Below, piece after piece: positions 47,585 through 63,648 of a DNA stretch of 64,000 nucleotides (position 1 is its first letter; every line of letters begins with the position of its first letter). The stretch comes from Bdellovibrionota bacterium. Lineage in GTDB: Bacteria; Bdellovibrionota_C; UBA2361; JAAYZI01. The stretch spans positions 140-64,139 of the forward strand of contig JBMNIF010000001.1 of assembly GCA_050950765.1 (NCBI GenBank), given 5' to 3'. Both the position numbers and the translations under genes were made by a program. The notes beneath the pieces are model-generated. The model saw only the letters and a program-made list of their open reading frames with translations. It did not search any database and was not told the origin of the DNA.

Positions 47585-48583
47585 ATGAAAAATTTTTTTG
47601 AACATCAAGAAAAAGCCAAAAACTATACGTTCTATCTATTGTTGTGTTGTCTTGTTACAACAATAATCACAGCTCTTACCGTATCTCACGGAGTGTTGGG
47701 TCTTTTTTTATGCCTCGATAATAGTGAAGATATCAATTTATATTCGCAAGATTATCATCAGGCGATAGTTTTAATAAGTTGCATAGTAGTATTTATAATC
47801 TGTTGTGGTTCTCTTTATAAGATCTTTCAACTGTCAAAAGGTGGAAAAGTTGTCGCTAAATTATTGGGTGGTACTTTAATTCCGACAGACACGCAGGATC
47901 CAAAGTTAAAAATGGTTTTAAATGTTGTGGAAGAGATGGCTATCGCTTCCAGTATTCAAACCCCTCCCGTTTATTACCTTCCGAAAGAAGCTGGAATAAA
48001 TGCCTTTGCCGCTGGATTTTCTACTGAAGATGCCATTGTTGCAGTAACTCAAGGTTGTATCGATAATCTATCTCGTGATGAGTTGCAGGGGGTGATCGCA
48101 CACGAGTTTAGCCATATCTTTAATGGTGATATGCGTTTGAATATCCGATTGATGGGGCTTGTTCATGGGTTTTTGCTACTGTATTTAATCGGATGGTCAA
48201 TATTAAGATTTATGCCACGCACAAGAAAGCGTGATAGTGATAGTAAAAGTGGTGCGCTTGTTTTTATTGTAGCTGTTGCGCTGCTTTTAATCGTTCTGGG
48301 CTCTATAAGCGCCTTTTTGGGGAATATAATCAAAGCCTCTATCTCTAGGCAGAGGGAGTTTTTAGCAGATGCGACTGCCGTGCAGTATACCAGAAACCCC
48401 GAAGGGATAGGAGGTGCCTTGAAAAAAATTCAGCTTTTAGCTGAAGGGTCTGAAATTAAAGCGCCTCATGCAAAAGAGGCAAGCCATATGTTCTTCTCGA
48501 ATAATTTTAATGGTCTCTGCAAACGGCTATTAGCTACGCATCCGCCATTAGAGGAGCGTATTCAAAGAATACTTACGCGCTAA
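47585..48583 (+). CDS. HtpX-like M48 family zinc metallopeptidase, paralog 1
   Basis: HEFSHIFNGD (HExxH), TM helices flanking it, C-terminal HPPLEERI; the M48/HtpX layout. Confidence 0.75.
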   Translation: MKNFFEHQEKAKNYTFYLLLCCLVTTIITALTVSHGVLGLFLCLDNSEDINLYSQDYHQAIVLISCIVVFIICCGSLYKIFQLSKGGKVVAKLLGGTLIPTDTQDPKLKMVLNVVEEMAIASSIQTPPVYYLPKEAGINAFAAGFSTEDAIVAVTQGCIDNLSRDELQGVIAHEFSHIFNGDMRLNIRLMGLVHGFLLLYLIGWSILRFMPRTRKRDSDSKSGALVFIVAVALLLIVLGSISAFLGNIIKASISRQREFLADATAVQYTRNPEGIGGALKKIQLLAEGSEIKAPHAKEASHMFFSNNFNGLCKRLLATHPPLEERIQRILTR

Positions 48584-49554: not shown

Positions 49555-50277
49555 ATGTATTATACAATATATGATAAATGGGCAAAGTGCTACGACCCTA
49601 AAAACAAGGAGATGCAAGTTTTAGCTGAGCTTGGGATAGACTTTCATGATAAAAAGGTGCTTGAAGTTGGAGCTGGAACTGGGAGATTTACACAAAGGAT
49701 TTTACCATTTTGTAAAGAAATAGTTTGTGTTGACCCAGATGACGAAGCGCTTTTAGTTTTGAGAGATAATATAAGCGATAAGAGAGTAAGTGTTTTGAAG
49801 GGGACGATTGAAACGGTACCTTTGAAAAAAGAGTATTTTGATTACGCAGTTTATTTATGGTCGATGCATTTAATAGACGAAAAAGAAAAGGTTCTTCAAA
49901 TCTGTTATGATTCTCTAATCAGGGGAGGTTGTGTCGTTATTTTACAAGCGATTTCTGGAGATTATGAAAAAGAAAAAAATAGATTATATAGCAAGTATGA
50001 TATGATGGATGTGTATGACACGACGTGTGAGGATTTGATTAAAGTGCTTGAAAAAGTGTTTGGAAGAGTAACTTGTGACACATTAAATACTTTTTTTTTC
50101 TTTTGATAGCATTGACCAAGTCGTTGAACCCACCGTTTCTTTTGTTGCGGACGAGGACGGAGAGCCACCTAGTGAAATTGCGATAAATTCCTTAAGGGAT
50201 AGACTCTCTTCATACGTAACCCCTGAAGGCAATATAAAAATGTCGGATACCGTGTCGATTTTTATAGCTTATAAGTA
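49555..50277 (+). pseudogene. class I SAM methyltransferase interrupted by a frameshift at a T9 homopolymer (50091-50099)
   Basis: The ORF ends ...TLNTFFFF* at 50106. The +1 frame continues ...SFDSIDQVVEPTVSFVADEDGEPPSEIAINSLRDRLSSYVTPEGNIKMSDTVSIFIAYK* to ~50277. A T10 tract would fuse the two parts. Motif I VLEVGAGTGRFT. Confidence 0.55.
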
Positions 50278-52103: not shown

Positions 52104-52676
52104 CTAAAACTGCACCTTTGGTGCTTGATAAACCTCTTTTTCCTCTGCTTGATCTAACTCAAACAGATCTTGTTCCCTAAAGTTAAATAAATTAGCTATA
52201 AGAACATCAGGAAATTGTTGAATGGCGGTGTTGTATATCACAACTTGATTATTGTACTGCCGCCTACTCAAGCTTATTTTATCTTCGGTATCACGCAGCT
52301 CTTCCTGCAATTGTAAAAAAACAGTATTTGCTTTTAAATCGGGATAACTTTCAGAGAGTGCGAAGAGTTGTCTTAACGCTCCGGATAGGGCGTTTTCAGC
52401 CTGAATTTGCTGTCCGATATTTTGAGAATTGGTCACAGTTGTTGCAGCGTTTCTTGCAGCAATAACGGCTTCGAACGTTTCTTTTTCATGAGAGGCGTAA
52501 CCTTTGGCAACTTCAATAACGTTTGGAATTAAATCGTGCCGTCTCTTCAGCTGAACTTTAATTTGCGACCACGATCCCACGCAGAGATTTCGTTTTCTTA
52601 TCAAGCTGTTATAAATCCATATGATATATAACAAAATTATAACGATAGCGATGACTATTCCAGCAGTTAAAGACAT
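52104..52676 (-). CDS. lemA: LemA-family protein, copy 1
   Basis: N-terminal TM plus the conserved QLKRRHDLIPNVIEVAKGYASHEKETFEAV and QLFALSESYPDLKAN blocks. Confidence 0.8.
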   Translation of the reverse strand: MSLTAGIVIAIVIILLYIIWIYNSLIRKRNLCVGSWSQIKVQLKRRHDLIPNVIEVAKGYASHEKETFEAVIAARNAATTVTNSQNIGQQIQAENALSGALRQLFALSESYPDLKANTVFLQLQEELRDTEDKISLSRRQYNNQVVIYNTAIQQFPDVLIANLFNFREQDLFELDQAEEKEVYQAPKVQF

Positions 52677-52714
52677 TAGAATCTCCTTTGCAAAAAAAGG
52701 AATTATAAACCGGT

Positions 52715-52815
52715 AGTATCAACAAGTTAGCGCACGGTTATGCCGATAATACTCCCTTTTATGTTCTATATTATTTAGCAGAGATGCGCCAGCCGCTATT
52801 ATAAGTTACTGTGCG
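52715..52815. repeat. direct repeat T1, left copy (~110 bp); pairs with 58670-58795
   Basis: The shared core aagttagcgcacggtt...atgccgataatac.c.tttatgttctatattatt.agcagagatgc is in the same orientation on the + strand in both copies. Confidence 0.75.
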
Positions 52816-52948
52816 AGTAGATAAAAAACAAACTTCCGAAGGCAAGCCTTGCCAAAGACTGGAACAAAAACCTCACAAAGACTGGAATGAAAAGTCTACA
52901 AAGACTGGAATGAAAACTCCACAAACACTGGAATGAAGATTGCGCTAA
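52816..52948 (+). promoter_or_regulatory. conserved upstream element T2, copy 1 (13-bp palindrome ggcaagccttgcc plus 3-4 x 21-bp subrepeats acaaagactggaatgaaaa)
   Basis: About 90% identical to 54438-54570; lies immediately 5' of the DUF4143 ATPase gene. Confidence 0.6.
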
Positions 52949-53009
52949 TACTTGAAAATACGATATACCTTCTTTAGGCTTCTTCGTTTTGAAAGTGAGA
53001 TGTGGTTTA

Positions 53010-54280
53010 TGAAAAAGTATTTGCCGAGAATTATAGATAAATTATTGCGTGAAAGATTAGAAGCTAAAGGGGCAGTTTTATTAGAAGGTCCTAAATGGTG
53101 CGGAAAGACTACGAGTGCTAAAGAGATAGCGGGTAGTTTTATATCAATGGATCAACCTGAAATGAGTGGGCAGTATCAATCTATGGCTGAACTCTCTCCA
53201 CTAACACTATTAGAAGGCAAGCCTCCGAGATTAATAGACGAGTGGCAGATAGCTCCAAACTTATGGAATGCCGTTAGATATGCTGTCGATGAAAGAGATG
53301 AATTTGGTCAATTCATTTTAACAGGCTCTGCCGTCCCTGCACAAATAGATGAGTCCATGCATACTGGCACGGGGAGAATTTCAAGACTTTATATGAGACC
53401 TATGAGCTTGTATGAGTCTAAGGATTCAAATGGCAAAGTTTCAATCGGAAACTTGTTTGCAAATAAGAAAATATCTACTAAAAGCGATACCGACTTAGAA
53501 GAAATAGCATTCCTAATTTGCAGGGGAGGCTGGCCAAAAGCGGTTGGTTTAGCCGAAAAGCAGGCTCTTTTTCAGGCAATAGATTATTTTGATGCCATCA
53601 TATCGACCGATATAAGTAGGGTAGATTCTGTGAAAAGAGATAAGGAAAAAGCAAAAAGATTTCTAAAATCTTATGCAAGAAATGTCGGAACTAGAGCTAC
53701 CCTAGAGACTATTAGACAAGATGTATTGTCTAATCATGCAGACACTTTCGACTCTGCTACGCTCTATTCATATAGAGATGCACTAACTAAAATCTTTGTT
53801 ATTGAAGATGCGCCAGCTTGGAATCCGAACTTGAGATCAAAGGTTGCTATTAGAACGACGGATGCAAGATATTTTGTTGACCCTTCAATCGCTGCAGCCG
53901 CTTTACAACTTGGTCCAAAAGATCTGTTAAACGATTTAAACACTTTTGGGCTTATCTTTGAAAATTTGTGTTTCCGTGATTTAAGAATATACGCAGACTA
54001 TCTAGATGGCGATGTCTATCAGTATAGAGATAGTAGTGGATTAGAATGCGATGCGGTAATTCACTTAAGAGACGGCTCTTATGGTCTAATTGAAATAAAA
54101 TTAGGAGGCGACACCTTAATTGAAGAAGGAGCAAAAAACTTACTAGACCTAGCCTCAAGGATAGATACAAACAAAATGAAAGAGCCTGCTTTTATGCTTA
54201 TTTTATGCGCCAAAGCTCCCTTTGCATATCAGAGAAAAGACGGGATTTGTGTGGTTCCTATAACTAGTTTAAAACCATAA
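53010..54280 (+). CDS. AAA+ ATPase with a DUF4143 C-terminal domain (COG1373-like), copy 1
   Basis: Walker A GPKWCGKTT and Walker B LIDEWQ; family-typical start MKKYLPRIIDKLL; start chosen at the internal Met at 53010. Confidence 0.7.
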
Positions 54281-54437
54281 ACCCCCCAAAAAAACTCCTC
54301 CTTAGTTTTAAGTGTAAAATTTCAATTATATAACTTATTGAAATAATTTATAAAAAGTTAAAAATCGATCCTTTAAGGTGATTGTAGCCCTTAAAAAACA
54401 TAGCATACGTAAAATAAGAAAAAAGTCTTAGAATTAG

Positions 54438-54570
54438 ATAAAAAATAAACTTCCGAAGGCAAGCCTTGCCAAAGACTGGAACAAAAACCTCACAAATACA
54501 GGAATGAAAAGTTCACAAAGACTGGAATGAAAACTCTACAAAGACTGGAATGAAAGCCCGTCAAACACTG
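54438..54570 (+). promoter_or_regulatory. conserved upstream element T2, copy 2
   Basis: Same palindrome and subrepeats as 52816-52948. Confidence 0.6.
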
Positions 54571-54804
54571 AAAGTTTCTAAAAAATTCTCTAAGCTTAAG
54601 CTTTGAAGCGATATCTCCCTTTTCATCATTTTAGGTTTTTTCTAAATATTTTTATATCAATCCCAGCTAGGTTCCTAACATACTGAAAAGATTAGATTGT
54701 TTTCTTTTGAAATTATAAAAAGACACTATCAAGTATCTTGCTTGCTACTACATTAGGTATATTTTAAGTAAAAATTACATAAACTTAGATAAAAAACTAA
54801 AATC

Positions 54805-54905
54805 TAACGGGATATAAATTAGAAATTTGACCGAATGAGAATTGGAAATTTGACCGATTATAAATTAAAAATTTGACCGAATAGGAATTGAAAATTTGAC
54901 CGATT
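54805..54905 (+). repeat. four iteron-like ~22-bp direct repeats (aaatttgaccgawt...)
   Basis: agaaatttgaccgaatg / gaaatttgaccgatta / aaaatttgaccgaatag / aaaatttgaccgattt, immediately upstream of the second DUF4143 ATPase. Confidence 0.7.
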
Positions 54906-54935
54906 TATGTTGTCTTTCTTTTTGGGAGATAAGTT

Positions 54936-56207
54936 ATGGATAGTCGATACTTGCCAAGATTAGTAGATAAATTAGTTGAGCTTAATTTAAAAGCCTTTGG
55001 GGCAATTTGTATTGAAGGTGCTAAATGGTGCGGGAAAACTTGGACATCAAGGTACCATTCTAAAAGTGCTATATATTTAGGAGACCCGAGCGAGAATTTT
55101 CAAAATAAAGAACTGATGCAATTAGCACCTAAAATAGCTTTAGATGGAGAAACTCCAAGATTAATAGACGAGTGGCAGGAACTCCCTTCTGTTTGGGATA
55201 CGGTAAGGCATGAAGTCGACAAGAGGGGGAAAAAAGGACAATTTATTTTAACAGGTTCATCAACACCAGTGCAAAAAGGTGTACTACATAGTGGAGCTGG
55301 AAGAATTTCTACTATTAGAATGAGACCCATGTCTTTATTTGAATCAAACGATTCATCTGGGCAAGTTTCTTTGCAGTCAATTTTTGATGGAACATTTGAA
55401 GCGGTAGCTCCCCCTAAAATCAATTTGCGGACGCTTATAGAGCTAACCGTTCGAGGTGGTTGGCCAGGTAGTTTAGGTTTGAGTTATGAAGAGTATAGTA
55501 TAATCCCTAAAGAATATATAAGTTCGATAATAAACCATGATATTTATAGATTAGAAGGAATCAATAGAAATTCAAAGAAGATGCATCGCTTATTAAAATC
55601 TCTTGCGAGAAATGAGTCGACAGTGGCTTCAATATCTACTTTAAGAGAGGATGTTAAAGAATATGAGAACGATGCTCTCGATAATGATACGATCTCGGCA
55701 TATTTAACTATATTTGAAAGATTGTTTTTAATCGATAATCAGAAAGCTTTTTCAAGTAATATAAGATCTGCAACTCGTATTAAGCAGGCAGATAAGAGAC
55801 ATTTTGTAGACCCCTCTTTAGCTATCGCCTTATTAGATGCAAGTTATGAAGACTTGTTAAACAATTTAAACGGATTTAGTTTTATGTTTGAGGCTCTTTG
55901 TGAGAGAGATTTAAGGATATATGCAGAAAGTTTAGGAGGTAAATTATATCATTATCAAGATTATAAGAACAGGGAAATCGATGCGATTGTAGAGTTAAAA
56001 GATGGTAGGCTTGGAGCTTTTGAAATTAAATTAGGGGTGGAGGCTGTTGATAATGCAGCAAAGTCGTTAATAGAAATAAGGGATGCTCTAAAAGCCGAAG
56101 GCTCTAACAGGCTAGATGTTTTAGTTGTAATCTCTGGTCTAAGTAATTTTGCCTATCGCAGGGAAGATGGGGTCTATGTCGTGCCGATTACAACGTTAAG
56201 ACCTTAA
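54936..56207 (+). CDS. AAA+ ATPase with a DUF4143 C-terminal domain, copy 2
   Basis: GAKWCGKTW Walker A and LIDEWQ Walker B; collinear with copy 1 but only moderately similar. Confidence 0.7.
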   Translation: MDSRYLPRLVDKLVELNLKAFGAICIEGAKWCGKTWTSRYHSKSAIYLGDPSENFQNKELMQLAPKIALDGETPRLIDEWQELPSVWDTVRHEVDKRGKKGQFILTGSSTPVQKGVLHSGAGRISTIRMRPMSLFESNDSSGQVSLQSIFDGTFEAVAPPKINLRTLIELTVRGGWPGSLGLSYEEYSIIPKEYISSIINHDIYRLEGINRNSKKMHRLLKSLARNESTVASISTLREDVKEYENDALDNDTISAYLTIFERLFLIDNQKAFSSNIRSATRIKQADKRHFVDPSLAIALLDASYEDLLNNLNGFSFMFEALCERDLRIYAESLGGKLYHYQDYKNREIDAIVELKDGRLGAFEIKLGVEAVDNAAKSLIEIRDALKAEGSNRLDVLVVISGLSNFAYRREDGVYVVPITTLRP

Positions 56208-56330: not shown

Positions 56331-56636
56331 ATGGAAAAATATTTTAGTGCAGAAGATAAAGTCAAGATACTCAAGGAGCATATGCTAGGTGAAGTGCCAG
56401 TATCGAACTTATGTGAAAAATACGGAATAAACGCTGATACATTTTATGAATGGCAAAATTTATTATTTGAAGGAGCCATTCAAAACTTTAAGCATAAAAA
56501 GCGAGGTTCAAAAAAAGCTAAGAAGCAAATTGAACGGATAGATACTTTGGAGAAGAAAATAGCGAAGAAAGATTCCGCGCTAAAGGAGCTGTTGAAACTT
56601 CACATAGATCTAAAGAAAAAGCTCGGAGAGTTCTAA
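56331..56636 (+). mobile_element. IS3-family transposase OrfA (HTH) remnant; no OrfB follows
   Basis: VKILKEHMLGEVPVSNLCEKYGINADTFYEWQ HTH and a leucine-zipper tail typical of IS3/IS911 OrfA; the next ORF is unrelated. Confidence 0.6.
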
Positions 56637-56793
56637 CAGATCATGAAGCTAAGCTGCAAATACGAGATAAGAGGTGATAGACTTTGTAGGTAAATGATAT
56701 AAGAGATCTGGTCAGAAGCAGGCTAAATGTGCTTTGCTTTTATTAAAGTGCAAATATAAACAAAAAGATGTTTTTATAAGAAAGGGAAGATCT

Positions 56794-58482
56794 ATGAAAA
56801 TTGCTTCGGTTAAAATAAAGAATTTTAGAAGCTATAAAGATGAGGTAACCGTTGATTTTGAAAATTTAACGGTATTTGTAGGGAAAAATGATTCTGGAAA
56901 ATCAACGATTTTAGAAGCACTAGATATATTTTTTAACGACGGAAAAGGGCTAGGCGTAACGAAGCTAGATGAAAACGATATAAATGTTGAGAACAAAAAA
57001 GCTGAAGATGGAGATAATGAGATCGAAATAACGGTCGTGTTTAAAGATTTGCCAGAAAAATTAATAATTGATGCCACCGTTGAAACTACTTTAGAAAAAG
57101 AGCATTTGTTAAATGGCGATAAATTAGAAATAATTAAAAGATATAAAAACGCAGGTACTCCGAAAATTTGGATTAGAGCTAATCACCCTACTAATCCTAA
57201 TTGTTCAGACTTATTATTAAAAAAACAAAATGAGTTAAAAAAAATTATTGAAGATAACAATATTGATTGCTCAGATCGGTCAGTTAACTCCGTGATGCGT
57301 GAAGCCATTTGGAAGCATTATGAAGATGATCTTAAATTAGATATTAAAGAAATAGATGTATCTAAGGAAGACGCAAAACAGATATGGGAAAAAATAAATG
57401 CTTGCTTACCAGCTTATTCATTATTTAAATCTGATAGACAAAATACCGATAGCGATTCTGAAGTGCAAGATCCGTTAAAAAATGCGGTAAATATGATTTT
57501 TAAAGAAGATAATATTATAAATAAATTAGATGAGATTGCTAAAGAAGTTAAAGAGCGATTAGAAGATGTATCTAGTAGGACATCAAAAAAGTTAGAAGAT
57601 TTTGATAAAAAAATAGCTGAAGAATTAAAGCCTGTGATACCACCAACAGACAAACTTGCTTGGAGTAGTGTATTTAAATCAGTTTCTATTTTTGGAGATA
57701 ATATTCCAATTAATAAAAGGGGAAGTGGTGTAAAAAGACTTATTTTATTAAGTTTCTTTAGAGCAGAGGCAGAAAGGCAAGCACAAGAAAATAAAAAAAC
57801 AAAAAATGGCGTTATATATGCCATAGAAGAACCTGAAACATCACAACATACAAATAATCAAAAAATTTTAATAGAAGCTTTAAAGAGTTTATCAGACAAA
57901 GAAAATATTCAAGTGATATTAACTACTCATAGTGCTTTTATAGTAAAACAGCTAGATAAACTAGATAGAGAAAAAGCCGCTAAAGATGGTGCAAAACAGC
58001 CAGATTTTTCAAATATAAGGATCGTAAATAAAAAAGAAGACAATAAAGGGAGAATTTCAAAAGTTGAAAAAAGTAGTCTTACATATCCATCATTAAACGA
58101 AGTTAATTTTTTGGCTTATGATGAGACTAGTATTGAATATCATAATGAGCTGTACGGGGCGTTGGAGTCTATGTATAGAGAATATAAGGAAAAGAAGGAA
58201 GATGAGAAAGAAAGAAGTTCCTTTAATAGTTGGTTAAAAAATGAATTAGAAGAGGCAAAGGTAAATGATGTTGAATTGGATAAGGATTACTTTAACGATT
58301 TGTGGAAAAAGCAGGAGAAGACTACTTTACCTACTTATATTAGACATATGATTCATCATCCTGAAAATAAAAAAAATGAAGAGTATACCCCAAATGAATT
58401 AAAAAGGTCGATTGAATTACTAAGAGAAGTTCTTAATATGCAGAAATTAAAAAACGATAAGGAAAGGAGGATCTGTAAATAA
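56794..58482 (+). CDS. stand-alone OLD / ABC-type (AAA_15/AAA_21-like) ATPase with an uncharacterised C-terminal domain
   Basis: N-terminal IKNFRSYKD...VFVGKNDSGKSTILEALD (Walker A), Walker B/D-loop IYAIEEPETSQH, H-loop LTTHSAFIV. The ~185-aa Lys/Glu-rich C-terminus has no Toprim motif that I can recognise. aagggaag RBS before the chosen start. Confidence 0.65.
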   Translation: MKIASVKIKNFRSYKDEVTVDFENLTVFVGKNDSGKSTILEALDIFFNDGKGLGVTKLDENDINVENKKAEDGDNEIEITVVFKDLPEKLIIDATVETTLEKEHLLNGDKLEIIKRYKNAGTPKIWIRANHPTNPNCSDLLLKKQNELKKIIEDNNIDCSDRSVNSVMREAIWKHYEDDLKLDIKEIDVSKEDAKQIWEKINACLPAYSLFKSDRQNTDSDSEVQDPLKNAVNMIFKEDNIINKLDEIAKEVKERLEDVSSRTSKKLEDFDKKIAEELKPVIPPTDKLAWSSVFKSVSIFGDNIPINKRGSGVKRLILLSFFRAEAERQAQENKKTKNGVIYAIEEPETSQHTNNQKILIEALKSLSDKENIQVILTTHSAFIVKQLDKLDREKAAKDGAKQPDFSNIRIVNKKEDNKGRISKVEKSSLTYPSLNEVNFLAYDETSIEYHNELYGALESMYREYKEKKEDEKERSSFNSWLKNELEEAKVNDVELDKDYFNDLWKKQEKTTLPTYIRHMIHHPENKKNEEYTPNELKRSIELLREVLNMQKLKNDKERRICK

Positions 58483-58669
58483 TTTTGTGTATTTTGCTAT
58501 TTCAGGACTGTGTTAACAGCTAAATTATATTTCTAAAGTAGTGATGTAGCTGAATCAAGTATCCACTAACATCAACCCTCCCCTCTAGGTTGATACCAAA
58601 AGCCCCTCTCTTCTTTATAGCTTATCATGTGGGGGCGTATTTGCCCCAGAAAATGGATTATAAGCCGCT

Positions 58670-58795
58670 GGAATCAATAAGTTAGCGCACGGTTTAGTTT
58701 ACGTACTGGTATGCCGATAATACCTCTTTTATGTTCTATATTATTCAGCAGAGATGCCTAGCCGGTATTATAAAACCGCACCTCTTCAGGTTGCT
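58670..58795. repeat. direct repeat T1, right copy
   Basis: See 52715-52815. Confidence 0.75.
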
Positions 58796-58888: not shown

Positions 58889-59479
58889 TTGGTGGACATT
58901 ACTCTGACTTTATGTCTCATTATTGTAATTTTGTTGGTAATTAAAATTTACAACAAACTTATACGTCTTCGGAATATTTGTAGAAATTCATTTTCACAAA
59001 TAGATGTACAACTAAAGAGGCGACACGATTTAATCCCTAATTTAGTTGAAGTTACAAAAGGCTACATGAAATATGAAAGAGAAACGTTCGAAGCCGTTAT
59101 TAAAGCACGGAATGAAGCAACTTCAGCTATAAAAGAGCTAAATTCAAAGCGGTTACTGAGTGCAAATGCTATGGCAGGGGTGGCAGGAGCTGAAAGCAAT
59201 TTAAACAACGCTTTATCGCAGCTGTTTGCGTTAGTAGAGGGGTATCCCGAACTTAAAGCAAATGAGGCGATGCAAAATTTAATGGAGGATCTACGCTCCA
59301 CCGAAAATAGAATCGCTTTTGCCAGACAGGTTTATAATGATGCTGTTATGAATTACAACACTAGGTGCGAACTCTTCCCTCATTTTTTTGTGGCGAAGCT
59401 ATTTAATTTTTCAACGGCTCCTCTCTTTGAATTAGATAATGAAAGTGAACGAGCAGCGATTAATCTTACCTTTTCATAA
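58889..59479 (+). CDS. lemA: LemA-family protein, copy 2
   Basis: Same conserved blocks as copy 1 (QLKRRHDLIPNLVEVTKGY, QLFALVEGYPELKAN); opposite orientation. Confidence 0.8.
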   Translation: MVDITLTLCLIIVILLVIKIYNKLIRLRNICRNSFSQIDVQLKRRHDLIPNLVEVTKGYMKYERETFEAVIKARNEATSAIKELNSKRLLSANAMAGVAGAESNLNNALSQLFALVEGYPELKANEAMQNLMEDLRSTENRIAFARQVYNDAVMNYNTRCELFPHFFVAKLFNFSTAPLFELDNESERAAINLTFS

Positions 59480-59621: not shown

Positions 59622-61466
59622 CCTAAATTCCCGTTTTTTTATAGTCTACACCTTAGTATTTAATATTTTATCGACAAAAATCTTCTGGTCAATTTCTAAT
59701 GCTTCTAAAATATCTTTTTGTTTTTTTGTTAATGGCTGTAGTAGCATGCTCAGATTTTCATTATCTATGCGTCTTATCATTTTAAGCGCTTCTAAAACTC
59801 TCTGAATGGTTTTTTCTACTTTTTTGTTATTATTATTTATAGTTCTTTGTAAGTCTGACCACATAATTAAGCTAAGAAAGGAGACGAAGCTTTTGCCGTC
59901 AGTAGTTTTTTCATTATGTGTTAGCATACGGTCATTATCCAATTCATTTTTTAAATTATCGAAAGCTTTCTCAATAAAGTCTCGTCGTGAATAGATATGA
60001 AGTGCTTCTTGTGGTGTCATTGTTGAGTGGTTACTCAAAAAAGCAAAAACTCCTAGCATAGATAAGATATCGGTAATTTTTTCATGATCCCTTTCAAAAC
60101 TTTCTAACTGCACTTCTTTCTTAGTTTTTATTTTGTAGTATTTAGAGTAGCGACTCATACTCATAGGCTTTTTCATTTCTTTTAGTTCATCTTCTAATCT
60201 GTCAATATGAGAGTAAAGAGTGCTCTCTTCCTCAGATGCACTTTTTGTATTTAAGTAAACGTAGAGAGAAAATTTTTCTCCATTTATCACAATATCTTTT
60301 CTTACCCCATAACAATTTGTCCCAGATATGTGATTCCTAGAAGAGCGAAGAGTAACAGATGCTTCCCTCATAGTATCGTTGTAATTTTTCTGAGATTTAG
60401 GAACAGCTACGAGAAATTCTATTTGCTCTTTTTTTATATATTCTAAATTTTCTTTTGTAATAAAACCTCTATCCAGAACATAAAATATATCATCAATACC
60501 TAAGCTTTTAGAGTATTCCATCATTGTTGTAAGAAAAACTTTATCAACAACACTTCCACTGTAAAGAAAAAAACTTATTGGTAAATTGCTGTCGGTAGCG
60601 TATAAAAGTCCGACATTTAGTTGTGGTAAATATTCTTTGTCTCTATTGTATCCATTCTCGGCAAGTGGCAAGTCTGCATAAGTAGAAAGGCTCGTAACAT
60701 CATAAGCTACAGTCTCATTGTTTTTCATAGCATGGTTTTTCCACACAGAAAAAAACTTCATTTGATCTTGTTTGGTAATCGATGAAAAAAGCTCACTTGT
60801 CTTTTGCGAGGATAGAGATATGTTTTTAGGGGTAAGAGTATTTTGCAAAAAATTATCTATATTCATCATTACATTGCCTTCGCAAGCCATGTATAACGCA
60901 GTATAAAAGATATCTTCGTATTTATCGGGAAAGATTGTTTTTAAGCATTTTAATAACCCTATAGCCTCAGCTCTCATTTTTAATGCGACTACGTGACCTG
61001 CGTCCCAAACAAAGCGAGAAGAAGCTAGATCAATAACGTCAGATGGCATTGGATAATATTTTCTAAAGTTCTCATTAGGAATCATTCTTCCTTGTCTATC
61101 AGGGTCTATCTTTCCCACAATCACTTCATCACAAGTAGGTGTGCCGTTCTTATTACGACGATGACCAAGTACGTGATACACATACTTTACGTTCCCTTTG
61201 TTATCTTTTTTATACGAAATCTTTTTTTCTGGAATTGGAATTGAAATATTTATTAAAGCCATTTTGCCTCCTATTTTTTACTGTCTCGTAGACTACGGAA
61301 GTATAGTCTACAAAGCAAAAGATGTCAATAGTTTTTTTAAAAAAATTAAAAAAACTTTTATAAAAAAACTTAATTAAATAAGTATGTTGGAGGAAATATA
61401 ATATTAGAAAATCTAAATATGAAATTAAATTATTGATATGGACTACATAAAAAACGGGAATTTAGG
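59622..61466 (-). mobile_element. insertion sequence (1845 bp) with 18-bp terminal inverted repeats (cctaaattcccgtttttt) and a 7-bp target-site duplication TCACCAT
   Basis: The left IR at 59622-59639 is the exact reverse complement of 61449-61466; tcaccat at 59615-59621 and 61467-61473; a single transposase ORF inside. Confidence 0.8.
59646..61262 (-). CDS. DDE transposase (IS4-superfamily-like, possibly IS1634-type)
   Basis: 538-aa ORF filling the IS; family assigned from general resemblance only. Confidence 0.55.
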   Translation of the reverse strand: MALINISIPIPEKKISYKKDNKGNVKYVYHVLGHRRNKNGTPTCDEVIVGKIDPDRQGRMIPNENFRKYYPMPSDVIDLASSRFVWDAGHVVALKMRAEAIGLLKCLKTIFPDKYEDIFYTALYMACEGNVMMNIDNFLQNTLTPKNISLSSQKTSELFSSITKQDQMKFFSVWKNHAMKNNETVAYDVTSLSTYADLPLAENGYNRDKEYLPQLNVGLLYATDSNLPISFFLYSGSVVDKVFLTTMMEYSKSLGIDDIFYVLDRGFITKENLEYIKKEQIEFLVAVPKSQKNYNDTMREASVTLRSSRNHISGTNCYGVRKDIVINGEKFSLYVYLNTKSASEEESTLYSHIDRLEDELKEMKKPMSMSRYSKYYKIKTKKEVQLESFERDHEKITDILSMLGVFAFLSNHSTMTPQEALHIYSRRDFIEKAFDNLKNELDNDRMLTHNEKTTDGKSFVSFLSLIMWSDLQRTINNNNKKVEKTIQRVLEALKMIRRIDNENLSMLLQPLTKKQKDILEALEIDQKIFVDKILNTKV

Positions 61467-62595
61467 TCACCATATTCCCCTGCATACAAATCTATAATGA
61501 GGTGTACCTACGGAATAGCGAAGCTAGTACTGACATACTTATGGACTATTTCGATCCAGTAATGGCTCCATTAAGTTGGATAGTGGCATTATTAATCTGC
61601 GGCAGCACCCTTTATAAAATCTTTCAATTATCAAAAGGCGAAAACGTTGCTAAATTATTAGGTGGCGTTTTAATTCCGACAGATACGCAGGAACCGAAGT
61701 TTAAAATGATCTTGAATGTTGTAGAAGAGATCTCCGTTGTTTCAGGTATTAAGCCACTTCCTGTTTATTACCTTCCAGAAGAAAAGGGGATAAATACATT
61801 TTCTGCCGGATCCTCTACTGAAAATGGTGTCATTACAGTAACGCAAGGGTGTATCGATAATCTATCTCGTGATGAGTTACAGGGGGTGATCGCACATGAA
61901 TTTTGCCATATCTTTAATGGTGATATGCGCTTAAATGTTCTGTTGATAGGGCTTATTTATGGACTTTCCCTGCCAATGTCTATGGGAAAGGGGATATTTG
62001 AATTTCTAAAGAATTTTAATAAGCGTATTAACAAAAAAGAAAACATAGTGATTACTTTAATTATAATCGGTATCACAGGTGGCATCTTAGGGAGTACGTT
62101 GGCGTTATTCTTTTGTGGTGCTATGAGCTACTTTTGCAGTATGCAAGCTAAAGCTTCTGTCACTAGGCATAAGGAGTTTTTAGCAGATGCTACCGCTGTG
62201 CAGTATACCAGAAACCCTGAAGGGATAGGGGGTGCCTTAAGAAAAATTATGGTTCTACCTGAAGGATCTGAAATTAAATCGCCTCATGTAAAAGAGATAA
62301 ACCACATGCTCTTTGCAAACTATTCTAACGACCCTCACAAAGGGGATAGGGATTTAGCTACGCATCCACCATTAGAAGAACGGATTAAAAGAATATTTGA
62401 GGTAGAGTATTAAAACCTAAGATGATCTTAGTGTGAGAGAAGTGGTGTTGTTTGGGAGTAGATTAGGTGTTTTTAATATTGCAGACACCTTTTTGTGGCT
62501 GCTATCAAAGTGCGGAATAAAGTAACTTCAACCATAAAGGAACTAATTCAGCGCTTACTCTTTGATAGATAATTTTCTTCGATGATACACGTGAG

Positions 62596-63648
62596 ATGGC
62601 AAGTTTTTTAAAATATCAAAAAAGAGTTAAGGAAGAAACTGTCGGCGCATTGTTGTTCTACGTTGCTGTAATAATGTTTACGGCTTTTCCTCTGCCTGGT
62701 TTAACCGTGTATTTCTTTGTAAGTTTTTATAATGAGGTCTACTTACGGAATGATAAAGCTAGCACTTCCGCACTTATGGATTATGTTGATCCAATAATGG
62801 TTCCTCTAGCTTGCATAATGGTACTATTAATCTGCGGCAGCACCCTTTATAAAATTTTTCAATTATCAAAAGGCGAGAGCATTGCTAAATTATTAGGTGG
62901 TGTTTTAATTCCGACAGATACGCAGGAACCGAAGTTTAAAAAGATTTTGAATATTGTAGAAGAGATCTCCGTTGTTTCAGGTATTAAGCCACTTCCTGTT
63001 TATTACCTTCCGAAAGAAGCTGGGATAAATACATTTTCTGCGGGATCCTCTATTGAAAATGGTGTCATTACAGTAACACAAGGGTGTATCGATAATCTAT
63101 CTCGTGATGAGTTGCAGGGGGTGATCGCACATGAATTCAGTCATATCTTTAATGGTGATATGCGTTTAAATGTTCTGTTGATAGGACTTGTTCACGGACT
63201 TGAGCTACCATTATATATGGGAGCGACATTACTTAAATCCGTGTGGAATCTAAATAAGCGCGTCAATAAAAAAGGAAGTATCGTAGTTGCTTTAATTATA
63301 ATCGTTGTTACAGGCGGCATCTTAGCGACAGGGGGAGCGTTAATCTATATTGGTCTTGGGAGCTACTTTTGTAGTTTACAAGCTAAAGCCGTTGTCACTA
63401 GGCATAAGGAGTTTTTAGCAGATGCTACCGCTGTGCAGTATACCAGAAACCCTGAAGGGATAGGGGGTGCCTTAAGAAAGATTATGCTTTCACCCGACGG
63501 ATCTAGAATTGAATCGCCTCACGCAAAGGAGATAAACCACATGTTCTTTGCAAACTATTCTAACGACCCTTACATAAGACATCGAGATTTTGCTACGCAT
63601 CCACCATTAAGAAAACGGCTTAAGAGGATATTTGAGGTAAGGTATTAA
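62596..63648 (+). CDS. HtpX-like M48 family zinc metallopeptidase, paralog 3 (intact)
   Basis: HEFSHIFNGD HExxH motif; closely similar to the disrupted paralog and to 47585-48583. Confidence 0.75.
   Translation: MASFLKYQKRVKEETVGALLFYVAVIMFTAFPLPGLTVYFFVSFYNEVYLRNDKASTSALMDYVDPIMVPLACIMVLLICGSTLYKIFQLSKGESIAKLLGGVLIPTDTQEPKFKKILNIVEEISVVSGIKPLPVYYLPKEAGINTFSAGSSIENGVITVTQGCIDNLSRDELQGVIAHEFSHIFNGDMRLNVLLIGLVHGLELPLYMGATLLKSVWNLNKRVNKKGSIVVALIIIVVTGGILATGGALIYIGLGSYFCSLQAKAVVTRHKEFLADATAVQYTRNPEGIGGALRKIMLSPDGSRIESPHAKEINHMFFANYSNDPYIRHRDFATHPPLRKRLKRIFEVRY

Follow-up and report, generated by a model that had tools for sequence, protein, structure and literature searches.

A stand-alone OLD-type ATPase gene of a Bdellovibrionota bacterium with a conserved, HEPN-like C-terminal domain

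A complete gene for an OLD-type ABC ATPase that continues, in the same polypeptide, into a HEPN-like C-terminal domain was located at positions 56794..58482 (+ strand; 562 codons and a stop) of the window, the 64,000-nucleotide stretch of Bdellovibrionota DNA analyzed here. The domain occupies the place that a Toprim nuclease holds in related proteins, it carries an invariant Rx4H motif, and it belongs to a large family in which the same two parts occur together as one gene. We rate the chances as somewhat better than even that the gene is a self-contained, single-protein abortive-infection defense module, with the OLD ATPase as sensor and a putative HEPN-type RNase as effector.

The list of open reading frames gave an intact frame of 562 aa from an ATG at 56794 on the + strand, the strand of all features described below. 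This start was fixed by alignment to 27 homologs; it is preferred because the homolog N-termini, which read MKI..., agree with it. A preliminary description of the region, in which residues were numbered as far as 582, had chosen the same frame but counted from an upstream TTG at 56734. A protein 100% identical to that of the window is recorded in a Bdellovibrionota MAG; a sister MAG holds a truncated, chimeric copy of the gene. An Rfam scan of the window from 50 to 64 kb yielded no match, and a scan for promoters and terminators returned signals at background level only.

The ATPase domain (residues 1-387; 56794..57954), which includes a helical insert at about residues 227-332, matched Pfam AAA_15 end to end over residues 1-384 (E 5.6e-86) and also matched AAA_21 (7.6e-20). 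The Walker A motif, or P-loop, was read as GKNDSGKST at residues 30-38 (56881..56907), with G30, K31, N32, D33, G35, K36, and S37 at least 90% conserved in an alignment of 28 sequences. The same alignment placed an ABC-signature-like motif, NKRGSGVKR, at residues 307-315 (57712..57738; N307, K308, R309, G310, S311, G312, and R315 invariant), Walker B and the D-loop, IYAIEEPETSQH, at residues 341-352 (57814..57849; Y342, A343, E345, E346, P347, E348, T349, Q351, and H352 invariant), and the H-loop, TTHS, at residues 377-380 (57922..57933; T378, H379, and S380 invariant). The preliminary description had already recognized an OLD/ABC ATPase with Walker A, Q-loop, Walker B/D-loop, and H-loop; the AAA_15 match, together with the invariance or near-invariance of Walker A, the signature-like motif, Walker B/D-loop, and the H-loop in the 28 homologs, agrees with that assignment. 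The OLD nuclease 6p74 was the top PDB match by sequence, and the best PDB matches of the full-length AF2 model in Foldseek were OLD 6p74, GajA, and PtuA. The nearest relatives with a different tail were single-gene OLD nucleases of 608 aa, one of which, from an E. coli plasmid, scored OLD-like_TOPRIM. They shared 42% identity with the window protein over residues 1-387, and the similarity stopped exactly at 387. Because such identity gives way there to an OLD-like TOPRIM, the nuclease domain is, on sequence comparison, swapped at residue ~387 relative to these Toprim-bearing relatives.

Beyond this point lies a tail of 175 aa (residues 388-562) composed of 14.8% Lys and 14.2% Glu. Its first part, a linker at residues 388-430 (57955..58083), contains a 16-aa insertion, DKLDREKAAKDGAKQP, found in the 28-sequence alignment only in the window protein and P0002; a predicted beta-hairpin follows, the strands of which the full-length model puts at 408-413 and 419-423. 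The remainder (residues 431-562; 58084..58479) was delimited by the AF2 model and by conserved blocks as a HEPN-like, all-helical domain. In the AF2 model of the tail (pLDDT 81.7) only helices were predicted beyond the hairpin, at 434-442, 447-467, 512-521, and 533-561, with one more, 477-487, inside an insert. Across the family the domain is about 100-135 aa long and predicted to be all-helical, and its conserved blocks read YPSLNEVN, EYHNELY, and YIR[HND]xxHHPEN. The second of these (residues 448-454; 58135..58155) opens the long second core helix; E448, Y449, E452, L453, and Y454 were invariant in the 28-sequence alignment, and among 44 divergent representatives E452 and H450 were at least 90% conserved and L453 invariant. 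Core helices 2 and 3 are separated by a Lys/Glu-rich insert (residues 458-509; 58165..58320) that is variable in length, poorly conserved, longer in the window protein than in a typical family member, and modeled with low pLDDT around residues 490-500 of the full-length protein. The Rx4H motif, RHMIHH (R517...H522; 58342..58359), followed by PEN, lies where predicted helix 512-521 ends and the next loop begins. The pattern R[H/N/D]xxHHP was present in 87/87 loci and Rx4H in 116/116 representatives, and the R and the second H were invariant among the 44 divergent representatives.

HEPN domains are described as having an all-helical core of four helices and about 100-120 aa, an insert separating helix 2 from helix 3, a conserved acidic residue in helix 2, typically as Ex3[K/R], and an Rx4-6H motif where core helix 3 ends and the loop begins, the R being followed by a polar N, D, or H (PMC3710099). 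The tail has Rx4H in this position, N, D, or H again following the R, and it has, in predicted structure only, an all-helical, four-helix core of about 100 aa in which an insert parts helix 2 from helix 3. E448 and E452 are conserved in helix 2; the Ex3[K/R] form is absent. Database searches gave no counterpart. No Toprim, OLD-like_TOPRIM, HNH, or other nuclease was found by Pfam in four family tails at E<=10, in line with the preliminary description, which had seen no Toprim signature in the Lys/Glu-rich C-terminus. No PADLOC or NCBIfam model extended beyond residue ~426, the tail profile met only chance matches among PDB sequences (ArcMAP2 and a designed coiled coil), and Foldseek found no helical bundle similar to the tail model. 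The tail showed no significant similarity in sequence, profile, or structure to an established HEPN family: hhalign gave the tail profile a probability of 0.9% against the ABC-HEPN protein (PrrC/RloC-type) of the P2-like prophage of APEC O1 and of 0.15-0.19% against the RnlA HEPN, the profile of which was thin because the protein search gave only five RnlA relatives. A confident alignment to a known nuclease fold, which the preliminary description had expected to speak against its proposal, was obtained from none of Pfam, PADLOC, NCBIfam, PDB, Foldseek, and hhalign. The same description had called the domain unrecognizable; this holds for database matches, but not for the invariant Rx4H in its HEPN-like position and helical context. 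We interpret the tail as a putative, divergent HEPN-type metal-independent endoribonuclease, on the strength of a motif that matches the published description; no profile or fold comparison confirmed the assignment. Since an OLD-type ATPase here carries a HEPN catalytic signature in place of Toprim, the protein is probably a one-protein abortive-infection system.

The architecture is widespread. The top 120 homologs were 51-57% identical to the window protein over 97-100% of its length, and a profile search with the tail returned 1,016 clusters at 50% identity and 612 clusters at 90% identity, and every match either followed an ABC ATPase on its C-terminal side or belonged to a fragment or chimera. 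Relatives were found in at least 331 species genomes, and the full-length architecture is kept in thousands of proteins from many phyla. Family members are about 510-560 aa long and encoded by one gene; their hosts include common human gut and oral bacteria. Conservation on this scale marks the tail as a genuine domain rather than junk. When all neighbors within 4 kb at 64 loci were clustered by all-against-all BLAST, no conserved partner emerged and no cluster was common to more than seven of the 64; Pfam annotation of the immediate upstream, downstream, and small neighbors at these loci likewise revealed none. The preliminary description had proposed such a survey and had offered a single-gene ATPase-effector fusion as one alternative, against which homologs always paired with a nuclease gene would speak. 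The fusion is what the conserved full-length architecture (1,016 clusters, at least 331 species, no conserved neighbor at 64 loci) supports, and constant pairing with a nuclease was not found at those loci.

On its 3' side the window gene is followed by 406 bp free of ORFs of at least 50 aa and then by a LemA gene, so that no partner gene follows, as had been noted. Upstream, a 101-aa ORF (56331-56636) ends 157 bp before the gene. It was described earlier as an IS3 OrfA remnant; a weak HTH_Tnp_1 / IS3-OrfA-like match stands (Pfam 29.2 bits vs a cut-off of 24.1), but the NCBIfam IS3 score was 30 bits against a cut-off of 160 and no OrfB follows, the 157-bp stretch being full of stops. The exact protein of this ORF was found only at the same locus in other samples. 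Elsewhere in the family, about one quarter of members lie directly beside or inside restriction-modification operons. The gene next to the family gene belongs to a restriction-modification system at 15 named loci, and the two are in many cases separated by only -20 to +4 bp. In Helicobacter pametensis the family gene (X) stands in the order hsdM-hsdS-X-hsdR, the prrC arrangement; hsdS lies directly 5' of the family gene at loci L018 and L070, and L032 reads hsdS...hsdR-X. Another member, P0040, is linked to BglII. The window copy has no restriction-modification linkage. Family members were also found on mobilizable and integrative elements, and no CRISPR arrays were detected in the 93 loci screened.

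Among known systems, class 1 OLD proteins (P2 Old; Thermus scotoductus OLD, PDB 6P74; the 608-aa plasmid-borne proteins) are likewise single-gene, use the same ATPase family, and place the effector domain at the same spot after the H-loop; there it is the C-terminal Toprim nuclease that defines these proteins, whereas the window protein has an unrelated all-helical Rx4H domain. PARIS AriA is an AAA_15-type ATPase and was the best PADLOC match (PDLC02979, 2e-73). This match was read as generic to AAA_15 because the 373-position model covers only residues 1-384; no AriB/DUF4435 was fused to or flanking the window gene or beside the genes at the 64 loci. PARIS arrests translation by RNA cleavage, the outcome also predicted for the window family, and both P2 OLD and PARIS AriB are tRNases. 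GajA models matched only the ATPase part of the window protein, which, unlike Gabija, has no Toprim and no adjacent GajB helicase. The NCBIfam PtuA model of Septu/PtuAB scored 29 bits against a cut-off of 500, and no HNH gene is adjacent. OLD-type ATPases are known to pair with alternative nucleases (PMC12839542), among them HNH (Septu/retron PtuAB) and, for HEC-02/03 and modules associated with BREX, PIN, NERD, and PD-(D/E)xK. The principle of an interchangeable effector is shared with these pairs, but their effectors are mostly separate genes of other folds, whereas that of the window protein is fused; an OLD-type ATPase to which a HEPN-like effector is fused was not mentioned in the papers surveyed.

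The ABC ATPase-HEPN fusions PrrC and RloC, which are anticodon nucleases (PMC3710099), follow the same logic of an ABC ATPase at the N-terminus joined to a HEPN RNase at the C-terminus in one polypeptide, and the hsdM-hsdS-X-hsdR placement of PrrC is matched by some family members, though not by the window copy. Their ATPase, however, is AAA_13 / Rad50-like, whereas the window protein is of AAA_15/OLD type with no AAA_13 match. The APEC O1 example of the PrrC/RloC type matched AAA_13 over its full length, was unlike the tail profile, and carries RYINRGSH, an Rx6H as read, plus Rx3E, in contrast to the Rx4H of the window tail; it was considered as a family member, in an attempt to equate the family with APECO1_4465 of PMC3710099, and rejected as belonging to a different family (AAA_13). 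No complete E. coli genome matched an Enterobacterales family member at the DNA level. ABC-HEPN proteins of the ERFG_01251 type (gi 422781011; Anantharaman et al. 2013) combine an N-terminal ABC ATPase with a 'classical' Rx4-6H HEPN and occur in bacterial defense contexts (PMC3710099); by this description, the window family may be identical with the group or a near relative of it. HEPN/Toprim-NTD1 fusions were absent from the 150 listed best matches. RnlA (RNase LS), a toxin and a typical HEPN RNase, shares in its catalytic loop the local pattern R-H-x3-H-x-E (ERHSLFHME in RnlA, IRHMIHHPE in the window protein), followed by an S..M.R-like helix, and hhalign set the two motifs in register, without significance (0.15-0.19%). 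RnlA lacks an ATPase and is kept in check by an antitoxin, whereas the window domain is fused to an ATPase.

A possible course of events is as follows. The OLD-family ABC ATPase (residues 1-387) would act as sensor and regulator, and the helical domain of about 100-135 aa, with its invariant R-[H/N/D]-x3-H, takes the place of the Toprim of OLD, GajA, or PARIS AriB. At rest, the ATPase may separate or shield the RNase domains. In response to a phage cue, the ATPase would then change its nucleotide or oligomeric state; such a cue may be DNA that is aberrant or being replicated, which is what has been reported for P2 OLD, or a neighboring restriction system that has been inactivated, which is the case with PrrC. 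Two of the C-terminal domains would next come together in a composite HEPN active site and cut RNA, most plausibly tRNA, so that translation would stop and the infection would abort.

Other explanations have to be set against this one. The tail may not be catalytic but instead a sensor, target-binding, or oligomerization module, with the ATPase acting alone or recruiting a separate effector. The absence of a fold or profile match to any nuclease would fit, as would the small, helical nature of the domain and the existence of HEPN-like domains without activity (PMC3710099). However, the invariance of R517 and H522 across about 1,000 divergent clusters, with E452, H450, E524, and N525 nearly so, is typical of an active site rather than a binding surface, no conserved partner was present at 64 loci, and the tail sits exactly where the nuclease domain lies in the 42%-identical relatives; a non-catalytic tail is therefore rather unlikely. 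A catalytic tail of non-HEPN fold, for example a new His/Glu-based nuclease sharing merely the short R..H pattern, would account for the statistical failure of every HEPN comparison, for the lack of a similar helical bundle in Foldseek, and for near-invariant residues in excess of the canonical HEPN motif (H450, H521, E524, N525, and N528). Yet the motif's location, where the third core helix ends, the polar residue next to the R, the acidic residue in the long helix that precedes, and the variable insert in between all match the HEPN description, and we hold this reading to be quite improbable.

That the gene is the relic of an OLD, PARIS, Gabija, or Septu system whose nuclease or partner was lost at an IS remnant, as the preliminary description had also suggested, is very improbable. 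An HTH_Tnp_1 ORF without OrfB does lie 157 bp away, PADLOC does name 'AriA' as best match, and the copy in the sister MAG is truncated and chimeric. The ORF, however, is upstream and not at the 3' end, where a partner or nuclease would be expected, and the 'AriA' model covers only the generic AAA_15 region. Decay finds no support because the family is stand-alone everywhere, with the same partnerless architecture in thousands of proteins, and because the window copy, by alignment and by reading of its sequence, keeps all ATPase and tail motifs intact. Finally, because no HMM, hhalign, or Foldseek search matched the tail to anything, it may represent a structurally unprecedented effector fold, diverged from HEPN or converged on Rx4H chemistry; we consider this a possibility, if a doubtful one.

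The present classification of OLD-family ATPases, into classes 1-3/4, goes by the Toprim nuclease and the gene context. Were the fold unprecedented, the family would form a fifth class of OLD proteins, a single-polypeptide abortive-infection system of ~1,000 clusters, and might guard restriction-modification systems as a back-up RNase, in the way of an OLD-based PrrC. A fused HEPN-like effector would be added to the HNH, PIN, and PD-(D/E)xK partners of these ATPases. Because the tail is absent from Pfam and the family from PADLOC and NCBIfam, defense finders miss its members or call them orphan AriA, Old, or GajA. The family is large and spread broadly over the phylogeny, it often shares operons with restriction-modification genes, and its members are small and easily tested. 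It would link OLD and PARIS, in which tRNA is cleaved by a Toprim, to PrrC and RloC, in which it is cleaved by a HEPN domain; if true, this link would argue for a sensor ATPase that is indifferent to the nature of its effector, with translation arrest as the common output.

The gene at window positions 56794-58482 (+) is an intact open reading frame of 562 codons, whose product combines an OLD-type ABC ATPase (residues 1-387) with a C-terminal tail (residues 388-562). The Met at 56794 was taken as the start, since the N-termini of all homologs in an alignment of 28 sequences coincide with that position; the length of 582 aa in the preliminary description results from counting an upstream in-frame TTG (56734) as the start. 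An identical protein, located by database search, is already recorded in a Bdellovibrionota metagenome-assembled genome. Alignment with typical members of the family (bacterial proteins of the same architecture) revealed two lineage-specific insertions, one of 16 aa in the linker and the other a lengthened Lys/Glu-rich stretch in the variable region of the tail; these explain the extra length and composition of the window protein, in which Lys and Glu make up 29% of the 175 tail residues.

Pfam AAA_15 aligned over its whole length to residues 1-384 (E 5.6e-86), with AAA_21 as a further match. Walker A (residues 30-38), a signature-like NKRGSGVKR (307-315), Walker B/D-loop (341-352) and H-loop (377-380), located by sequence and homolog alignment, vary little or not at all across 28 aligned homologs. 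The top PDB match, both by sequence and by fold of the full-length AlphaFold model (pLDDT 78), was the Thermus scotoductus OLD nuclease 6p74, followed by Gabija GajA and Septu/retron PtuA. When plasmids were searched by tblastn with a family member as query, 353 records were obtained, nearly all limited to residues 1-406 at 39-45% identity. The three records inspected encode single-gene proteins of exactly 608 aa; that of an E. coli IncHI2 plasmid carries Pfam OLD-like_TOPRIM at residues 423-494, and that of a Micrococcus plasmid is 42% identical to the window protein over residues 1-387 (E 3e-92), the similarity stopping exactly at residue 387. The window protein is thus closely related to class 1 OLD nucleases: the ATPase is shared, but at its end another domain has taken the place of Toprim.

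No Pfam family matched the tail even at E<=10, no PADLOC or NCBIfam model extended past about residue 426 of the protein, and no NCBIfam model reached its cut-off. The lack of a Toprim signature in the C-terminus was thus borne out by all three collections, and the profile searches suggested in the preliminary description identified the ATPase (AAA_15/AAA_21) but no known system beyond about residue 426. Structure prediction of the C-terminus, likewise suggested, yielded a helical domain but no similar known fold: a model of residues 404-562 (21-sequence alignment; pLDDT 81.7, pTM 0.73) consists of a beta-hairpin followed by helices only, in agreement with the full-length model, and Foldseek against PDB and BFVD returned no match below E 0.37. 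Alignment and model together place three conserved blocks: YPSLNEVN[Y/F] forms the short helix 1, EYHNELY opens the long helix 2, and YIR[H/N/D]xxHHPEN runs from the end of helix 3 into a loop; a final long helix with S..MR follows, and the insert between helices 2 and 3 is variable in length and poorly conserved. R-x3-H-H-P was present in 87 of 87 loci and Rx4H in all 116 divergent representatives, while the only invariant residues in a 44-sequence alignment of representatives were the Arg, the second His, one Leu and one Ser. Two members have Asp in place of the first His and retain the second; R517 and H522 (window protein numbering) are therefore the fixed pair and the candidate catalytic residues.

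By definition (PMC3710099), a HEPN domain spans about 100-120 aa in four helices, often with an insertion separating helices 2 and 3; helix 2 bears a conserved acidic residue, and an Rx4-6H motif, its Arg followed directly by N, D or H, sits where helix 3 passes into a loop. On its predicted structure the tail has each of these features, except that its helix-2 acidic residue lacks the usual Ex3[K/R] form. The window protein has IRHMIHHPE at the position of ERHSLFHME in the typical HEPN RNase RnlA of E. coli. In hhalign the Rx4H motifs of the tail and RnlA fell in register, yet the probability was below 0.2%; it was 0.9% against a PrrC/RloC-type ABC-HEPN protein of the APEC O1 P2-like prophage, which matches AAA_13 over its full length, in contrast to the AAA_15 ATPase of the window protein. 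Profile searches of PDB sequences with the tail matched nothing relevant. Because neither these comparisons nor Foldseek linked the tail statistically to any known HEPN family, we call the modelled domain HEPN-like rather than a proven HEPN member.

The whole-protein search gave 7,295 matches at E<=1e-5, of which the best 120 were 506-561 aa long, with 51-57% identity across 97-100% of the query. A tail-only profile recovered 612 clusters at 90% identity and 1,016 representatives at 50% identity (498 of these at E<=1e-10). In every full-length case examined, including those with more divergent AAA_15/AAA_21 ATPases, the tail lay C-terminal to an ABC ATPase; the exceptions were fragments and a few chimeras. 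Scanning one genome per species, we found relatives in 331 species, from phyla including Bacteroidota, Bacillota, Pseudomonadota, Campylobacterota, Actinomycetota, Planctomycetota, Chloroflexota and Patescibacteria. The window gene belongs to a conserved family and has not decayed.

Among the chimeras, database proteins P0243 and P0245 share a near-identical 3' portion of the family gene (Walker B or H-loop onward plus the HEPN-like domain) behind unrelated N-terminal sequences, and several other top matches cover the ATPase only in part, a pattern suggestive of repeated truncation or insertion within a single mobile element. P0002, the copy in a sister Bdellovibrionota genome (locus L014, 6819-8411), opens with the initial ~95 aa of a Methyltransf_11/25 protein (95% identity to window 49555-50103), joined in frame to the ATPase at LEKE[H/Y]LL with loss of Walker A; an N6_N4 DNA methylase gene is next. 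This protein is either a deletion/recombination product or an assembly chimera.

ORFs were called in 64 loci with a full-length member and all neighbours within 4 kb were clustered. The largest cluster was common to just 7 of the 64 loci, and no Pfam family recurred among immediate upstream (37 proteins), downstream (33) or small (42) neighbours; downstream of the window gene there is no ORF of at least 50 aa over 406 bp, and a LemA gene is next. The description of an ABC ATPase with full motifs, an unmatched Lys/Glu-rich tail and no partner gene therefore stands, while its suggestion of a decayed system that lost its partner at an IS scar is rejected, given no recurrent neighbour family in the 64 loci and a widely conserved full-length architecture. 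Of the supposed IS3 OrfA remnant, a weak HTH_Tnp_1 match in an upstream 101-aa ORF was recovered but no OrfB after it; this ORF was found only at the same locus in other samples.

In 15 named loci the family gene lies directly beside a gene for restriction or modification, in most cases with the same orientation and often with an overlap or a gap of a few bases: HsdS (L018, gap -20 bp; L029; L070, +4 bp), HsdS...HsdR (L032), a fused N6_Mtase-specificity protein (L066), type III-like Res (L026; L042, 0 bp), ResIII helicase (L058), AlwI (L027), GmrSD (L073, -4 bp), DUF2357/PDDEXK_7 (L024), N6_N4 methylase (L040, +1 bp; L014), and BglII plus MT-A70 on a mobilisable element (L008, L054). In Helicobacter pametensis the order is hsdM-hsdS-X-hsdR, X being the family gene, as for prrC in the prr locus. 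The embedding of prrC in an hsdMSR operon has been described (PMC3710099). Further neighbours were integrases, relaxases, TnsD, SocA/Panacea, Schlafen and HEPN_AbiV. In Dialister invisus (L001-L006) the gene lies among a long run of small genes without Pfam match, with DUF2262/DUF7021 and DUF6707 proteins, a setting that resembles the immunity-gene array of a polymorphic toxin locus.

Unlike those family members, the window copy has no linked restriction-modification system. It follows two tandem DUF4143/AAA_14 ATPase genes (52952-54280, 54936-56207), PADLOC candidate PDC-S01. An imperfect direct repeat of ~120 bp (52687-52805 and 58640-58775; blocks are about 85-97% identical and one 16-bp indel distinguishes the copies) encloses 5.95 kb with the ATPase-HEPN-like gene, the HTH_Tnp_1 ORF and the pair of DUF4143 ATPases, and two inverted LemA paralogs lie just beyond (52104-52676, -; 58889-59479, +); the segment resembles an inserted island that has att-like ends but no integrase. 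A 23-bp repeat (AAATTTGACCGAATGAGAATTGG and variants) recurs in tandem arrays (52795-52960, 54412-54577, 54800-54914) upstream of each DUF4143/AAA_14 gene; the arrays resemble iterons or operators. Between LemA and an M48 peptidase gene, 18-bp perfect terminal inverted repeats (CCTAAATTCCCGTTTTTT) surround a 538-aa DDE_Tnp_1 transposase (59646-61262, -) in what looks like an intact IS (59622-61466). There are three M48-family peptidase paralogs (47585-48583, 61502-62413, 62596-63648), two of them in tandem; these and the two LemA genes make up repeated LemA/M48 modules that surround the island.

The comparisons above establish the domain composition and swap, conservation as a stand-alone gene, the invariant candidate catalytic residues and the association of the family with restriction-modification genes and mobile elements. 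By analogy, the ATPase would serve as sensor and gate and the tail as effector. HEPN RNases generally require two domains for one active site; we therefore propose that a trigger would alter the ATPase dimer or tetramer and so bring two tails together, and that the paired tails would cut RNA, most plausibly tRNA, halting translation. OLD-type ATPases control their nucleases; for P2 OLD, the reported activity is that of an abortive tRNase, released when the inactive tetramer binds DNA structures and is destabilised (bioRxiv 10.64898/2026.07.10.737580). In PARIS, AriA meets the anti-restriction protein Ocr and the tRNase AriB is released (PMC12839542); PrrC and RloC are ABC ATPase-HEPN anticodon nucleases restrained by their own ATPase, PrrC additionally by the flanking type I restriction enzyme (PMC3710099). 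We lean modestly towards this reading of a trigger-driven HEPN-like RNase under an OLD-type sensor. The two main rivals seem unlikely: a non-catalytic tail, favoured by profile and fold searches that matched no nuclease but opposed by an Arg-His pair fixed across divergent representatives, and, slightly less probable, a catalytic tail whose fold has nothing to do with HEPN, favoured by the negligible hhalign probabilities and opposed by the predicted helices and motif.

Fusions of an ABC ATPase to a HEPN domain have been on record since 2013 (PrrC, RloC, APECO1_4465, ERFG_01251; PMC3710099), and pairings of OLD-type ATPases with HNH, PIN or PD-(D/E)xK nucleases are already described (PMC12839542). 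At the P2 'old' hotspot, the P2-like prophage of E. coli APEC O1 (L098, 45933-48149) encodes a 738-aa AAA_13 (RloC/PrrC-type) ABC ATPase with C-terminal MRNILE...RYINRGSH motifs, flanked by the replication endonuclease and portal genes; this protein probably corresponds to APECO1_4465, an ABC-HEPN protein of Anantharaman et al. 2013. In the literature we searched, no OLD/AAA_15 ATPase with a fused HEPN-like domain is described, and the tail has no Pfam family and the family no PADLOC model; the family may be the ERFG_01251 group. It is conceptually incremental, and a good, cheap candidate for experimental testing.
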